In this document: positions 33,651-41,422 of the stretch, piece by piece | Numbering within the stretch: position 1 is the stretch's first letter | How the letters are laid out: each line of letters starts with the position of its first letter | Assembly: GCA_965612865.1 (NCBI GenBank) | Contig: CBFDTJ010000004.1 | Coordinates: 1 to 41,582 of the forward strand | Direction: 5' to 3' | DNA length: 41,582 nucleotides | From: an uncultured bacterium | GTDB taxonomy: Bacteria; Caldisericota; Caldisericia; B22-G15 | Position numbers and translations under genes: made by a program | The notes under the pieces: model-generated | What the model was told of the DNA's origin: nothing | Seen by the model: the letters and a program-made list of their open reading frames with translations, nothing else | Databases searched by the model: none

Positions 33651-33678
33651 TTGACAAAATCCTTTTATATAATATAAT
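33651..33678 (+). promoter_or_regulatory. Sigma70 promoter of the TetR-ABC operon
   Basis: Consensus TTGACA (33651-33656), 16-bp spacer, TATAAT (33673-33678). Confidence 0.8.
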
Positions 33679-35209: not shown

Positions 35210-35991
35210 TGGGATTAGTTTTGGATACATTTACAATATGCAAAAGGGAACTTATAAAATATTTTAGACAGAAACCAAGAATAATTGTAACAATGATACA
35301 ACCTGTTATCTGGCTTGCATTGATGGGAAACACCATGAGCAAGATAACCAATAACCCCTTTGCTTCTAAACTTTTTGGCACAGGCAATTACCTTTCCTTT
35401 ATGACCCCAGGAATTGTAATAATGACATCTCTATTCAGTGGTATCTTTGCAGGAACAAGTATAATCTGGGATAGAAGAATAGGATATCTGGACAAACTCC
35501 TTGCTGCTCCGATAAAGAGAGCATCCATTCCTTTTGGGAAGACACTTTCAGCTTCAATTCAGGGGGCACTCCAGTCTGCAATAATATTGCTTTTCGCGTA
35601 TATTCTTGGTGTTAGATTTGCTTCTGGATTTCTTGGTGTACTTGTGATAATTTTAATTTCCATGCTTTTCTCATTCATCTTCTCTGGAATATCTCTAATT
35701 CTTTCTTCAACCATTAAAACCATTGAGACACTTATGGCTATTATAAATTTTATGACTCTCCCATTAATGTTCTCAAGCACAGCTTTATTCCCGTCCAAAG
35801 CCATGCCGGACTGGTTATCAGTTATTGCAAAGATTAATCCACTTTCCTATGCTGTGAATCCTATAAGGACACTTACTATAAAGGGCTGGGAATTTTCATC
35901 GATCCTACCAGGTGTTATCATCATACTAATTTTTGATTTAATTGTAGCCTTTCTATCATACTATGTGTTTAAGCGTCTGACAAGTGATTAA
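35206..35991 (+). CDS. ABC-2 type transporter permease
   Basis: About six TM segments; FMTPGI, WDRRIGYLDKLLAAP, MPDWL..IAKINPLSY. Confidence 0.92.
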   Translation: MMGLVLDTFTICKRELIKYFRQKPRIIVTMIQPVIWLALMGNTMSKITNNPFASKLFGTGNYLSFMTPGIVIMTSLFSGIFAGTSIIWDRRIGYLDKLLAAPIKRASIPFGKTLSASIQGALQSAIILLFAYILGVRFASGFLGVLVIILISMLFSFIFSGISLILSSTIKTIETLMAIINFMTLPLMFSSTALFPSKAMPDWLSVIAKINPLSYAVNPIRTLTIKGWEFSSILPGVIIILIFDLIVAFLSYYVFKRLTSD

Positions 35992-36006
35992 TCTGTATGT
36001 TATAAT
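35977..36006 (+). promoter_or_regulatory. Candidate promoter of the osmC-glmM-glmS operon
   Basis: CTGACA (35977-35982), 18-bp spacer, TGtTATAAT (35998-36006). Confidence 0.6.
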
Positions 36007-36041: not shown

Positions 36042-36461
36042 ATGCAGCATTTTGAGTTAACCTGGAATGGTGGAATGGAGTTTGTTGGAACAACACCATC
36101 AGGGCATAAAGTTCTTGTGGATTCAACACCAGATAAAGGTGGAGGAGATAAAGGTCCAAGACCGATGGAATTACTCATTGTTGGTTTGGCAGGATGCACT
36201 GCAATGGATGTAATTTTTATTTTGAGAAGAATGAGAGAGAAGGTTCAAGAATTTAAGGTTGAAATTGATACAGAGAGAGAGGAAAGTCATCCTAAGGTCT
36301 ATAAAAGTATACACATAAAGTATTTATTTAAAGGAGAAAATCTCTCAGAGAAAAATATAAAGAGAGCTATTGACCTTTCACAAGATGTATATTGTTCTGC
36401 CTCAGCAACATTTAAGAGAAGTGGAGCTACTGTCACCTACTCCTACGAAATTAAATCATGA
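36042..36461 (+). CDS. OsmC/YhfA-family protein
   Basis: GPRPMELL..GLAGCTAMD and YCSA conserved cysteines; SD AGGAGAGGAG. Confidence 0.9.
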   Translation: MQHFELTWNGGMEFVGTTPSGHKVLVDSTPDKGGGDKGPRPMELLIVGLAGCTAMDVIFILRRMREKVQEFKVEIDTEREESHPKVYKSIHIKYLFKGENLSEKNIKRAIDLSQDVYCSASATFKRSGATVTYSYEIKS

Positions 36462-37795
36462 AACACTTTGGAACCGATGGAATAAGGGGTATAGCAAATA
36501 AGGACTTAACCTCCGAACTTGCTCTAAAAGTTGGGAGAGCTGCTGGTCTATTCTTTGGTGGTGATGTAATTATTGCAAAGGATCCAAGACTTTCATCAGA
36601 TATGCTTGAGACAGCTCTTGTATCTGGAATTTTATCTACTGGGGTTAATGTTTATAGAATGGGAGTACTTCCAACTCCAGCAGTATCTCTTATTCTCTCT
36701 ACCAATGGAAAAAGCGGGGGAGCAATGATTTCTGCTTCCCATAATCCCATTGAGTATAATGGAATAAAATTCTTTTCAAAAGATGGGGTTAAACTTAAAG
36801 AATCCGAAGAGGAAGAAATTGAAAGATTAATGGAGGAGGAAAAACCACTTCCTGTTGGAAAAGGTGGAAGACTCTTTGATTTCACTAAAGCAAAAGAAAT
36901 TTATATTAATGAAATTCTTTCCATGAACAGGTTAAACCTCTCGGGTATTAAGATTGTAATTGACGCAGCATTTGGTGCAACAGCTACTGTAGTAGGTGAA
37001 ATATTCAATAAACTTAAGGCGGAAGTCTATCTATTCAACGGAGAGCCAGATGGAGAAAGAATAAATGTTAATTGTGGCTCAACAAATCCCAAATTTTTAT
37101 CAGAGAAATTATTGGAAATAGGCGCTGATGTTGGTTTTGCTTTTGATGGTGATGGTGACAGAGTTATAACCATTGATGAGGAAGGGAAGATTGTTGATGG
37201 GGACGAGACGATGTTTATTCTTTCGAGGTATCTTAATCTTAAGAGTATAGTAATTACTGTTATGAGTAATTACGGTTTGAGAGCTCTTCTCAAAAAATAC
37301 AATATATCTTTCTATGAGGTTCCTGTGGGTGACAGAAATGTTTTATATAAAATGCTTGAGACAAATTCCCCTCTTGGAGGAGAACAGTCTGGGCATATAA
37401 TATATCTTCCACAGAGTAAAACTGGAGATGGAATAATAACATCTCTTTTGATCTTATCAGTGATGTTAAGGGAGAATAAACCCCTATCTTTACTTACAGA
37501 AGAGTTTATTAGATTTCCACAGGTACTAAGAAATGTAGAGGTGGAGAATAAAGAGTTAGTTATGAAGGATGAGGAATTTTTAAAGGAGGTGATGCTATGG
37601 AATAAGAAATTAAATGGAAGAGGAAGAATTCTTGTTAGACCATCTGGTACAGAGAATTTAATTAGAATCATGGTAGAAGGAGAAAAAGAAGAGGAAACAG
37701 AGACTATCGCAAGTTTGCTTGAGGAGTCTCTAAAGAAGCGCCTGGCCCAGATGAATCTGGGTGACGAGGAAGGGGGTTACCCCTTTAAGGGGTGA
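36458..37795 (+). CDS. glmM: Phosphoglucosamine mutase
   Basis: FGTDGIRG, ISASHNP, FDGDGDR, GGEQSGH, VRPSGTE; directly upstream of glmS. Confidence 0.95.
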   Translation: MKHFGTDGIRGIANKDLTSELALKVGRAAGLFFGGDVIIAKDPRLSSDMLETALVSGILSTGVNVYRMGVLPTPAVSLILSTNGKSGGAMISASHNPIEYNGIKFFSKDGVKLKESEEEEIERLMEEEKPLPVGKGGRLFDFTKAKEIYINEILSMNRLNLSGIKIVIDAAFGATATVVGEIFNKLKAEVYLFNGEPDGERINVNCGSTNPKFLSEKLLEIGADVGFAFDGDGDRVITIDEEGKIVDGDETMFILSRYLNLKSIVITVMSNYGLRALLKKYNISFYEVPVGDRNVLYKMLETNSPLGGEQSGHIIYLPQSKTGDGIITSLLILSVMLRENKPLSLLTEEFIRFPQVLRNVEVENKELVMKDEEFLKEVMLWNKKLNGRGRILVRPSGTENLIRIMVEGEKEEETETIASLLEESLKKRLAQMNLGDEEGGYPFKG

Positions 37796-37896
37796 AAATC
37801 GAGCTATTCGGCGGATGCCCCCAGGGAGTGTGCCCTCCCTAAAGGTCTTCCTTAAAACCACGGGGTAACCTGTGGGACAAAGGGAAGGTCAGGCAC
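37736..37896 (+). ncRNA. glmS glucosamine-6-phosphate-activated ribozyme
   Basis: A|GCGCCTG cleavage motif (37737|37738); P1 GCCCAGA/TCTGGGT; GACGAGG; P2 GGGGG/CCCCC; ATCGAG..TTCGGCGGATGC core; P3 AGGGAG/CTCCCT; P3.1 pseudoknot GTGCC/GGCAC; P4 and P4.1 CCACGGG-GTAA-CCTGTGG with a GNRA loop; just upstream of glmS. Confidence 0.95.
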
Positions 37897-37910
37897 GAGG
37901 AGGAAAGTTT

Positions 37911-39734
37911 ATGTGTGGTATAGTGGGTTATATTGGAGATAGAGAAACTCTTCCCATAATTCTTGATAGTTTAAAAAGACTTGAATACAGAGGATATGAT
38001 TCCGCAGGAGTAGCCCTTCTTGGTGAAGATATCTATATAAAGAGAACTAAAGGAAGGATAAAAGATCTTGAGAAAAAAATTGATGGAACATACACGGTTA
38101 AGAATTTTTATCTTGGTGTAGGACATACAAGATGGGCAACACATGGAATTCCATCAGACTATAATGCACATCCTCATACTGATTGTAGTGGAGAAATTGT
38201 TGTTGTACATAATGGAATAATAGAAAATTTTGACGAGATAAAAAAGGAGCTCATGGAAAAGGGGCACAAGTTTACTTCTGAAACAGATACTGAGGTTGTT
38301 CCCCACCTCATAGAGGAATGCTATAACGGAGATTTACTGTCTTCGGTTATGGAAGCCGCAAGAAGACTTAAAGGTTCTTTTGCTCTTGCTATATTTTCAA
38401 AAAAAGAGCCAGACAAAATAATTGCTGTGAGGAAGGATTCTCCACTTATAATAGGTATAGGTGAGGATGGAAATTTTCTTGGTTCTGATATTCCCGCTCT
38501 GCTTCCATACACAAAGAAGGTCATAATTATGGAAGACGGAGAGGTGGCAGTCATTAAAAAAGAAGAAATAGATATATTTAATATTAATGGAGAAAAACTT
38601 ACCAAAGATATACTTGAAGTTTCATGGAGTCTCGAACAGTCAGAGAAAAAGGGTTATAAACACTTTATGCTTAAAGAAATAATGGAGGAAGGAGAGGTCT
38701 TAAAAGAAGCAATAAGAGGGAGAATTAGAAATGGAAGAGTCTTTCTTCCAGAAATAAGCGATCCCCACTTCTTTAACAATATTAAAAACATCTTTCTTGT
38801 TGCCTGCGGAACTGCTTATCATGCAGGAATGATAGGAAAGTATTTTCTTGAGGATATTCTTCACATTCCTGTTAGATGTGAGGTCGCTTCTGAATTCAGG
38901 TATGAAAACCCAAATGTTGGTAAGGATTCTCTGTTGATTCTTGTATCTCAGTCTGGAGAAACTGCTGATACAGTTGCATCCTTGAGGCTTGGTAAGAAAA
39001 AAGGAGCAAAAACTCTTGGAATTGTAAATGTTGTTGGTAGCACTGTGGCAAGGGAGTCTGATGAAGTTCTCTATATATATGCTGGACCAGAAATAGCTGT
39101 TGCTTCAACAAAGGCGTACGTTGCTCAAATCCTTGTGCTTTTACTTCTCTCAATATATATAGGTAAACTTCATGGAGCTATAAATCCTGATTTTGAGGAA
39201 ACACTTCTGAAGGATATCTTAAAAATAGGGAATCTTGCTGAAGATATTCTTGAAAGAGATGATGAGGCAAAAAAGATAGCAGAGAAGTTGGTAAATTTAA
39301 GAAGTGTATTTTACATAGGTCGACTTCTTGATTATCCTACTGCTCTTGAGGGAGCGCTAAAGTTAAAAGAAATCTCATATATTCATGCAGAGGGGTATCC
39401 AGCAGGAGAATTAAAACATGGTCCCCTTGCTCTCATTGAAAAAAGTGTTCCAACTTTCGCCATAACAACAGACGAAAGAATAGTAGAAAAGATGGTATCA
39501 AATATAAAGGAAGTTAAAGCAAGAGAAGGGAAAGTGTTTTCTATTTCCAGAGAAGACTTTGACGAGATAAGAGAGATTTCAGATGAGACAATTACTATTC
39601 CCAGAGTTCACAGATACCTTACGCCCATTCTTTCAGTTATACCACTACAACTTATTGCCTATTACACCGCAGATATGAGAGGATTAGATGTGGATAAACC
39701 AAGAAATCTTGCTAAATCGGTAACTGTGGAGTAG
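37911..39734 (+). CDS. glmS: Glutamine--fructose-6-phosphate aminotransferase
   Basis: MCGIVG N-terminal nucleophile start at 37911 after SD GAGGAGG; LEYRGYDSAG, GHTRWATHG, SQSGETAD, KPRNLAKSVTVE. Confidence 0.98.
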   Translation: MCGIVGYIGDRETLPIILDSLKRLEYRGYDSAGVALLGEDIYIKRTKGRIKDLEKKIDGTYTVKNFYLGVGHTRWATHGIPSDYNAHPHTDCSGEIVVVHNGIIENFDEIKKELMEKGHKFTSETDTEVVPHLIEECYNGDLLSSVMEAARRLKGSFALAIFSKKEPDKIIAVRKDSPLIIGIGEDGNFLGSDIPALLPYTKKVIIMEDGEVAVIKKEEIDIFNINGEKLTKDILEVSWSLEQSEKKGYKHFMLKEIMEEGEVLKEAIRGRIRNGRVFLPEISDPHFFNNIKNIFLVACGTAYHAGMIGKYFLEDILHIPVRCEVASEFRYENPNVGKDSLLILVSQSGETADTVASLRLGKKKGAKTLGIVNVVGSTVARESDEVLYIYAGPEIAVASTKAYVAQILVLLLLSIYIGKLHGAINPDFEETLLKDILKIGNLAEDILERDDEAKKIAEKLVNLRSVFYIGRLLDYPTALEGALKLKEISYIHAEGYPAGELKHGPLALIEKSVPTFAITTDERIVEKMVSNIKEVKAREGKVFSISREDFDEIREISDETITIPRVHRYLTPILSVIPLQLIAYYTADMRGLDVDKPRNLAKSVTVE

Positions 39735-39738
39735 AAAG

Positions 39739-40521
39739 ATGGAGATAGAGGCAGTTGTTCTTGGTGGACAGGATAAACTTGAAGATTGGGTTAAAGAGGA
39801 AGGAGTGCCTCACAAGGCACTCCTTGATATTGCTGGAAAAAGGATGATTGATTGGATAATAGATGCATTAAAGGATACGCCCCAGATAAAGAGGATTATA
39901 CTTATTGGGAAATCTGATATTTTCCCTGAGGATATTAGAAAAAGGGTGGATGTATTTTTGGAAGACAGTGGAAGTTTTATGAAAAATATTGAAAATGTTT
40001 ATAAGATTGCAAAGTATGAGTATTCTGTCTTTGTGCCTATAGATGTCCCATTGATTACTTCCCAGGTATACACAAAAACTTTTGAGTTTTGTGAGAATTT
40101 TGAAAAAGGGTGCTATCTATATGTTCTCGTTAATAGAAAGAGAGATGTGGAGAAGAAATTCCCAGGGACAAAGAGAACTTACTGGAAACTCAAAGGGGGG
40201 TATTACAAGATTGGAAATATTCTTCCCATAAGAAGAGAACTCTATCCCTCTGCCATAAATTTTGGGTATAAACTCCTTAAGGCAAGGAAATCTCCTATCA
40301 AAATGGCATCTCTGTTTCCAATATCTTTTATGATTAAAGCTCTATTTCATCTTGCAACATTGAAAGATTGTGAGGTTGTTGTGTGTGATATTACAGAGCT
40401 TAGGGGAAGAGCTGTTCCAATACCTTTTCCTGAAATTGCTATTGATGTGGACAAGAAAGAGGACTTAATCTTTGTAAGAAAGATAATGGAGAAATTAAAA
40501 GATGAGAGAACTACCCCTTGA
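39739..40521 (+). CDS. MobA-like NTP transferase family protein
   Basis: AVVLGG, KALLDIAGKRMI, DVPLI, IDVDKKEDL motifs of GT-A fold nucleotidyltransferases. Confidence 0.75.
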   Translation: MEIEAVVLGGQDKLEDWVKEEGVPHKALLDIAGKRMIDWIIDALKDTPQIKRIILIGKSDIFPEDIRKRVDVFLEDSGSFMKNIENVYKIAKYEYSVFVPIDVPLITSQVYTKTFEFCENFEKGCYLYVLVNRKRDVEKKFPGTKRTYWKLKGGYYKIGNILPIRRELYPSAINFGYKLLKARKSPIKMASLFPISFMIKALFHLATLKDCEVVVCDITELRGRAVPIPFPEIAIDVDKKEDLIFVRKIMEKLKDERTTP

Positions 40522-41422
40522 GTTAATGTTTAATGAGGAAGCTGAAATAGAAAAAATAACCAGATTTATAAAAAATCATCTTAATAAATTTGGAAGGAGT
40601 GGAGTTACATTGGGGGTGAGTGGAGGGGTGGATTCTGGTGTTGTATTGAAGTTACTTTTGAGATCTCTTCCTAAAGAAAAGATCTTTGCTTTAATTTTGC
40701 CAGACAGAGATACTGAAAAAAAGAGTGTTTCTCTTGCTCTCTCTTTACTAAAAGAGGAAGAAGTATCATACAAAATCATAAACATTTCTTCAATACTTTC
40801 AAAATTTGGAATTTATAGGAAACTACCCTATTGGTTGCTTCCCACAAGAAAGATGAGGGAGAATATTACGAGGAAGTTTTATAACGATTATACAAAGAGA
40901 TTTAAAAAATCTCCCTTCTTTCTTGGATTGAAGGTTCCTGAAGAGTTGTTAGAAGATAAGTGGTTTTTGAAAGGTATTGCATATCATAGAATAAAACATA
41001 GAATAAGGATGGTTACACTTTACTACTATGCAGAACTAAAGAACCTGCTTGTTGCAGGCACGTGTAACAAAACTGAAAAACTTCTCGGGTTCTTCGTAAA
41101 GTATGGGGATTCTGCAGTGGATTTAGATCCCATTGCCCATCTCTTTAAAACACAGGTCTTCAAACTTGCTGAAAGACTTGATGTACCAGATGAGATAATT
41201 AATAGACCACCGTCTCCAGATTTAATCCCGGGCATCACAGATGAATTCGCCATGGGTTTGTCATATGAGCTGGTTGATAGGATACTTGTAAGGCTCATAA
41301 ATGGGGAGGATCCAGCAGAAATAGCAAAAATTGTTAATCTCAATGTGGAAAAGGTCAAAATCTTAAAGGAGGCGATGGAAAATTCGCTACATATGAGATC
41401 TCTTCCACCTTCACTTACTTAA
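40502..41422 (+). CDS. nadE: NH3-dependent NAD+ synthetase
   Basis: GVSGGVDS PP-loop, KHRIRMVTLY, GTCNKTE, GFFVKYGD, LFKTQV, PSPDL, TDEFAMG; no glutaminase domain. Confidence 0.9.
   Translation: MRELPLELMFNEEAEIEKITRFIKNHLNKFGRSGVTLGVSGGVDSGVVLKLLLRSLPKEKIFALILPDRDTEKKSVSLALSLLKEEEVSYKIINISSILSKFGIYRKLPYWLLPTRKMRENITRKFYNDYTKRFKKSPFFLGLKVPEELLEDKWFLKGIAYHRIKHRIRMVTLYYYAELKNLLVAGTCNKTEKLLGFFVKYGDSAVDLDPIAHLFKTQVFKLAERLDVPDEIINRPPSPDLIPGITDEFAMGLSYELVDRILVRLINGEDPAEIAKIVNLNVEKVKILKEAMENSLHMRSLPPSLT

Follow-up and report, generated by a model that had tools for sequence, protein, structure and literature searches.

Can a self-cleaving ribozyme place its cut inside a gene that the cell must still translate, and if so, is the arrangement a switch or a consequence of crowding? 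The glmS ribozyme, the textbook metabolite-activated ribozyme, is described in the untranslated leader of glmS. In the window analysed here, a 41,582-nucleotide stretch of DNA (contig CBFDTJ010000004.1 of assembly GCA_965612865.1, positions 1 to 41,582 of the forward strand) from an uncultured bacterium of the Caldisericota lineage B22-G15, a glmS ribozyme stands between glmM and glmS with its predicted scissile bond in a sense codon of glmM. This overlap is a real, conserved and recurrent variant of the known glmS ribozyme system, whose function here is read by analogy.

A predicted cleavage site inside a sense codon

A preliminary description of this DNA placed the scissile A37737/G37738 in the second of two Lys codons, 18 codons before the glmM stop, and these coordinates are correct. 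The cut splits codon 427 (the second Lys of KK) after its second base, 18 sense codons then lead to the stop, and codons 427–445 lie within the ribozyme; the end that had been given for the ribozyme region, 37911, already belongs to glmS, as the A of its start codon. All nine genomes of the window's family (two genera) keep glmM open across the cut, at the same codon position; their GlmMs are 66–95% identical, and their stops follow the cut codon by 6 to 23 codons. A metagenome contig (L252) likewise keeps the frame open across the cut. In a comparison of assembled contigs, raw reads aside, no insertion or deletion occurs within 37680–37800 in any of the four sequencing runs compared, two of which (X3 and X5) come from other studies; the remaining two, X1 and X2, may be where this DNA was obtained. 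Record 10 of X3 covers 37571–37906 with no differences, records 20 and 21 of X5 are also from a separate study, and the sole listed indel is one base at 37907, 3′ of the ribozyme, in one X3 contig. Runs sharing at least half of the window's words are seawater, sediment and hydrothermal-vent metagenomes (six of seven; one is unlabelled), and no RNA run is listed among them.

The earlier suggestion that a single indel made the overlap drew on an out-of-frame TAA (37731–37733), which is indeed present 4 nt 5′ of the cut, but it has become vanishingly improbable, since the nine genomes, the L252 contig and the contigs of four runs agree on the open frame, and ending GlmM at that TAA would make it shorter than the shortest tail among 143 others. 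The overlap is confirmed as real and no indel artefact.

One stretch, a protein helix and a catalytic core

The statement that glmM "reads through" the ribozyme stands insofar as the overlap is real, but not in the sense of a spurious tail, as the first residues encoded there, K-R-L-A, are the normal end of the GlmM helix. When tail length is counted from the Met of the MVEG-type motif, with two mis-anchored loci and one duplicate dropped, all 143 other GlmMs end 23–38 residues from the motif, with a mode of 26. The cut codon is tail position 23 in the window's family, and positions 23–26 (K-R-L-A) are written by A(-1), the P2.2 5′ strand and the P1 base; Leu, the commonest residue at tail position 25 (43 of 143), is also found there in the window. 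An alignment-based AlphaFold model of GlmM (94 sequences; mean predicted local distance difference test score, pLDDT, 95.5) has a helix at 411–434, with pLDDT falling from 97 (421–430) to 72 (431–440) and 53 (441–445). In this model, the ribozyme's first bases are predicted to encode the normal last turn of the GlmM C-terminal helix. A single-sequence fold (pLDDT 38.7) was set aside in favor of the alignment-based one.

A stop 5′ of the cut would leave a tail of at most 22 residues, below every GlmM sampled, and such a truncation would presumably harm the enzyme. Because the cut codon lies within the minimum GlmM tail length, a stop upstream of the cut is not easily gained, and because K-R-L-A is the normal helix end, the overlap could be retained without any need for regulation. 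Past position 26, the tail varies fourfold in length, and its substitutions (Ala/Thr at the P1 base, Gly/Glu in P2) preserve base pairs while altering the amino acid: this later tail is a passenger shaped by RNA pairing. The window's GlmM is like its characterized relatives (TIGR01455; solved relatives 3pdk, 6gyz and 7ojr) in that it matches the family as a whole protein, at full length and with all domains; it is unlike them in its 41-residue tail past MVEG, as compared to the usual 23–30, the extra part being ribozyme-encoded.

A conserved fold with an added hairpin

The ribozyme scores above the RF00234 gathering score across the whole model. Its helix names and registers were set from the Rfam alignment, the crystal structure and PMC7125110. 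The double-pseudoknot core (P1, P2, P2.1 and P2.2) and the conserved cleavage-site bases are present, with standard core pairs in all nine family genomes and P2.1 and P2.2 invariant, while the peripheral P3, P3.1 and P4 are paired in 89.5–94.4% of cells and show both-side changes in every helix. Across the nine genomes, 96.1% of 462 cells are paired and 11 of 52 pairs have changed on both sides; pairing controls favor the structure but are biased, because the sequences are kin and one of them was the source of the structure. Judged by these comparisons, the ribozyme looks functional. It is upstream of glmS, whose start lies 174 nt past the cut, and its cut lies in glmM codon 427 instead of an untranslated region, which is the usual context of a glmS ribozyme but no part of the Rfam definition.

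All nine family members carry an insert between the P2 5′ strand and the P2.1 3′ strand (28–36 nt). Among the other ribozymes, this stretch is 8–10 nt in 147 of the 153 located (162 located in all, from 189 loci given). Five of the remaining six seem to be mis-anchored, and L426 is perhaps a real 24-nt case. Among Bacilli, it is 8–10 nt in 60 of 61, the lone exception being mis-anchored. The inserted hairpin is 100% paired in the nine genomes, and three of its five pairs vary on both sides. The glmM stop lies inside the insert in eight of the nine genomes and inside the P1 loop in the ninth. Past the insert, the three frames next reach a stop at 37840, 37853 and 37866, so that a ribosome would traverse the whole core without it. 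The P1 loop lengths of 4, 7 and 8 nt, considered for frame preservation, represent two events.

What does a translating ribosome do to such a core? The preliminary description held that ribosomes finishing GlmM would unfold it. Their passage through it stands as a matter of geometry, whereas the unfolding stays a prediction: since the path to the glmM stop crosses the whole of P1 as well as the P2.2, P2.1 and P2 5′ strands, interference by the ribosome is unavoidable. The locus thereby offers a natural test of how ribosome traffic affects ribozyme folding and activity in a bacterial mRNA.

Distribution and independent origins

A phylum-wide Rfam search (93 genomes) found the ribozyme in 17, namely in all nine genomes of the window's family and in eight of nine of one family in another class; the same search did not find it in 75 genomes of the class's other five families, a pattern of patchy retention or gain. 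None of the eight ribozymes of the other-class family has glmM upstream.

An evenly drawn sample of Bacillota yielded 103 ribozyme matches in 98 of 151 genomes, all of which were examined. glmM lies within about 1.5 kb upstream in 89 loci, with its stop at a median of 117 nt before the cut (77 loci) and ending exactly at the cut in four. The cut is inside glmM in two of the 89: L365, whose stop ends at +8, and L373, where the cut falls within the TAG stop. There are no overlaps in the class of a Ruminococcus genome (62 matches, from which 56 further loci were examined and 33 have glmM), in the class of G200, taken as Bacilli (68 of 112 matches examined, 28 supplied and 40 hand-picked with a leaning to smaller genomes; 53 with glmM, the nearest at 49 nt), or in Thermoleophilia (zero of three), and glmM is upstream of none of the Chloroflexota ribozymes examined (31 of 46 matches). 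Overall, the cut is inside glmM in 2 of 178 glmM-linked ribozymes of these broad samples, and the overlap is rare.

The overlap of L365 is shared by its relatives in a Bacillota clade. Nine of ten genomes there end glmM with AGC GCC TGA (Ser-Ala-stop), taken from the ribozyme's first bases in a frame that differs from the one used in the window's family (L365, L385, L387, L389, L391, L397, L400, L404 and L406). L372, nested in this clade, has its stop flush with the cut and represents one reversion; the clade's GlmMs are 55–97% identical. In a tree of 118 GlmM proteins (FastTree, midpoint root; L387 left out as too short), the window's family forms a clade (support 1.0) placed within the GlmMs of its phylum, L372 and eight of the nine +8 proteins form a separate clade (1.0), and L373 falls in a third, where its neighbors' stops are at 0 and −14. 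The simplest reading of this tree would be that a cut in the glmM coding end arose at least three times independently. The spacer has been reduced to zero or to an overlap several independent times (the +8 clade, +1 and flush stops). In two lineages and two reading frames, the most constrained bases of the ribozyme double as codons for a structural helix in an essential enzyme.

Several further observations were made along the way. Flush glmM stops are found at L367, L372, L403, L420 and L524, and L373 has its stop codon split by the cut; at such loci a terminating ribosome would cover the active site. A hairpin in the spacer might usually shield glmM, but only 33 of 91 spacers beat all 20 shuffles. 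The gene order in L530 is cdaA-cdaR-glmM-ribozyme-glmS-acpS-like. L397 and L409 (G470:C6) are two identical inverted glmM–ribozyme copies about 4 kb apart on one contig, a duplication or a misassembly, and L404 and L406 have a ribozyme P1 enlarged by short tandem repeats. Among the Chloroflexota loci L290–L319, many ribozymes have A for C at position 5 and a GGAGG-containing P1 loop resembling a Shine–Dalgarno sequence.

Some candidates were rejected. Ten long open frames spanning the cut at other loci, most of them GC-rich, were judged by eye, with no family scan, to be shadow or repeat frames, and apparent overlaps at L594 (Bacilli) and L182 (metagenome), as well as the L258 frame, came from wrong anchors. 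Loose pattern scans of 120 genome and 120 metagenome loci were replaced by Rfam searches in the survey; none of the genome loci matched the longer core pattern, and about a dozen of the metagenome loci were real ribozymes.

Proposed course of events

In Bacillus subtilis, glucosamine-6-phosphate (GlcN6P) induces cleavage and RNase J1 degrades the 5′-OH product (PMC3997798; PMC6171935; bioRxiv 10.1101/2023.03.12.532304). By analogy with this established mechanism, GlcN6P would trigger self-cleavage of the osmC-glmM-glmS transcript, and RNase J would degrade the 3′ piece, with glmS and the downstream genes. The remaining 5′ piece would be a glmM mRNA without a stop, as previously proposed on the correct ground that the stop is 3′ of the cut. 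It would end two bases into codon 427, where ribosomes would stall. Transfer-messenger RNA (tmRNA), together with SmpB, would then rescue these ribosomes and release a tagged, nearly full-length GlmM, to be proteolysed by Lon, FtsH, or ClpP with another unfoldase. Decay of the mRNA may spread to osmC, as it does for zntR-arfA. Each ribosome completing glmM would meanwhile unwind half the core, that is, P1 together with the P2.2, P2.1 and P2 5′ strands. Since P1 is thought to nucleate core folding (PMC7125110) and is unwound by ribosomes, translation should slow cleavage, which is probably slower on well-translated glmM mRNA.

Handling by tmRNA, which had been suggested earlier, is borne out to the extent that genes for both tmRNA and SmpB occur in the genome, tmRNA being on contig C72. 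tmRNA is also found in all five other genomes searched, from both overlap lineages, and the tags end in AVA. RNase J, which the genome also has, is found in five of five genomes searched, and Lon and ClpP in five of five family genomes. A search of three family genomes did not find ClpX, and a search of five did not find RNase R or RqcH, several of these genomes being 96–100% complete; an Escherichia coli-type downstream route should therefore not be assumed. In G000 (C12:13552-16435), and also in G001, G003, G005 and G006, lon directly follows clpP with no clpX between. tmRNA appears to be the only rescue route found; ArfA, ArfB and BrfA were not searched for.

How does the locus compare with known systems? 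The cdaA-cdaR-glmM-glmS operon of B. subtilis is alike in RNA family, in the ribozyme's place between glmM and glmS, in the identity of the downstream gene and in the presence of RNase J (PMC6171935; PMC3997798). It is unlike in that its ribozyme is described as lying in the 5′ untranslated region, whereas the window's cut is in a sense codon and half of its core is translated; in Bacilli, moreover, the glmM stop is at least 49 nt before the cut, and the window has the extra P2–P2.1 hairpin. The E. coli arfA and zntR-arfA mRNAs offer the second parallel, as an end inside an open reading frame gives a stop-less mRNA, repression by trans-translation and decay spreading upstream (PMC10107115). 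There, RNase III or a terminator makes the end, which reports tmRNA capacity; here, the RNA itself would make the end, on a metabolite, and the product would be a nearly complete essential enzyme. By its position, the predicted cleavage site of the window lies inside an open reading frame, as non-stop regulation of the arfA type demands. In the literature covered, outside which lies the main glmS ribozyme survey, so that prior mention is possible, we found neither a glmS ribozyme reported to cut within a coding sequence nor a natural ribozyme reported to produce non-stop mRNA in bacteria. Through the overlap, riboswitch cleavage is tied to ribosome rescue, and in the lineages so marked what becomes of the upstream cleavage product, a matter little studied, must be of consequence.

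Switch or tolerated by-product?

On balance, we lean towards genome compaction followed by lock-in: the 5′ spacer of a working ribozyme was lost, and the ribozyme became fixed in the glmM end, the minimum tail length of GlmM then holding it there. The effects on glmM are most likely tolerated by-products, the cause of the overlap being elsewhere. Even if only tolerated, the overlap would mean that cells survive a metabolite-dependent source of non-stop mRNA from an essential cell-wall gene. Two points weigh against this view. Lock-in by protein length fails for the +8 Bacillota clade because an earlier stop there gives a normal-length GlmM (as in L372), yet nine of ten genomes keep the overlap; escape in that clade needs an indel or several substitutions. 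The inserted hairpin, which carries the stop in eight of nine genomes and ends translation before the P2.1 3′ strand, could be an adaptation to the overlap.

A selected two-way switch is a tentative possibility that we consider doubtful. One cut would silence glmS and also destroy the glmM message and protein via trans-translation, and ribosomes would gate the cut, so that it occurs only at high GlcN6P and low glmM translation and couples GlmS supply to GlmM synthesis. In its full form, equally doubtful, this is a device with two inputs (GlcN6P high and glmM translation low) and two outputs (RNase J decay of glmS and tmRNA-tagged destruction of GlmM), convergent in at least two lineages, with a lineage-specific hairpin that would halt ribosomes just short of the active site's second half. 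Long retention in two clades and an overlap that arose at least three times independently argue for selection; the rarity in broad samples (2 of 178) and the one reversion (L372) argue against it. The hairpin insert parks the stop just before the core's 3′ half, but the length and sequence of the tail are free. The parts are plausible: tmRNA is in all five genomes searched of both clades, regulation through non-stop mRNA is established for arfA and zntR-arfA (PMC10107115), and P1, which nucleates core folding (PMC7125110), sits in the ribosome's path. However, GlmM consumes GlcN6P, so removing it at a high GlcN6P level would tend to keep that level up, and protein lock-in suffices in the window's family.

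That ribosome traffic or the inserted hairpin keeps the ribozyme mostly silent in vivo, with glmM unaffected, is unlikely. Each terminating ribosome would unwind strands of P2.2, P1, P2.1 and P2, and the other ribozymes sampled offer no certain case of the 19–27 nt P2–P2.1 insert. Against this, in nine of nine genomes every active-site helix is invariant and the periphery shows covariation, which points to strong selection on the RNA fold, outside the coding overlap too.

Very unlikely, in turn, is the idea that glmS is made mostly from its own promoter inside glmM, the ribozyme working on an untranslated short transcript with a minor effect on glmM. Weak promoter-like sites do occur inside some glmMs (e.g., 37408–37437, 9 of 12 matches), and the sister class, read by eye, uses its own promoter before the ribozyme. 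No internal site within the last 700 nt before the cut is common to all nine family genomes, however, and one of them has none in that stretch; between 33400 and 41582, there are 27 promoter-like sites as compared to 24.2 ± 5.3 in shuffles. No terminator-like site was found between glmM and glmS, and the extended −10 element before osmC is at the same place in the three other family genomes checked. A separate glmS promoter had earlier been named as a finding that would overturn the proposal. It is not decisive: with the stop lying downstream of the cut, no glmM mRNA can be complete unless it carries the cut site, whatever the promoters.

The locus and its neighbors

The features of the locus are collected in Table 1. 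The osmC 3′ end and the glmM start share 4 nt, the osmC-glmM order is repeated in the family genome G003, and GlmS matches TIGR01135 as a whole protein.

Table 1. Coordinates of the glmM–ribozyme–glmS locus in the window
Feature	Position	Strand	Remarks
Promoter-like site, likely start of the osmC-glmM-ribozyme-glmS transcript	35977..36006	+	11/12 sigma-70 matches, extended −10; consensus match only
OsmC-like gene	36042..36461	+	NF008009, score under that family's cut-off
glmM, phosphoglucosamine mutase, 445 amino acids	36458..37795	+	TIGR01455, 459.2 bits vs cut-off 447.55
glmS ribozyme RF00234, complete	37726..37900	+	95.9 bits vs gathering score 37; model positions 1–167
Scissile A(-1)/G1	37737..37738	+	glmM codon 427 (AAG); predicted by homology to Rfam consensus
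Dual-coding stretch, codons 427–430 (K-R-L-A)	37736..37747	+	Ribozyme A(-1), P2.2 5′ strand and P1 base; predicted last turn of GlmM helix
P1 helix, 7 pairs	37745..37762	+	
Inserted hairpin and linker, family-specific	37779..37797	+	Between P2 5′ strand and P2.1 3′ strand
glmM stop codon TGA	37793..37795	+	Ends 58 nt past the cut
P3, P4, P4a, P3.1 pseudoknot	37823..37896	+	P3.1 3′ strand adjoins glmS Shine–Dalgarno
Shine–Dalgarno-like GAGGAGG of glmS	37897..37903	+	Read from sequence
glmS, glutamine--fructose-6-phosphate transaminase, 607 amino acids	37911..39734	+	TIGR01135, 820.7 bits vs cut-off 418.05

Neighboring genes on the same strand overlap at five of eight junctions between 32250 and 41422, in keeping with genome compaction. 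After glmS, a gene for a MobA-like nucleotidyltransferase and one for NAD+ synthase (39739–41422) follow with 4-nt and overlapping junctions and may be silenced together with glmS; a MobA-like gene is 3′ of glmS in G003 too. Ahead of osmC-glmM, a perfect sigma-70 consensus (12 of 12; 33651–33678) precedes a TetR-like regulator and an ABC transporter pair, both named by a look at their sequences. The last 66 bases of the contig (41517–41582) resemble an Illumina Nextera adapter with index, which we take to be a non-genomic remnant of assembly.

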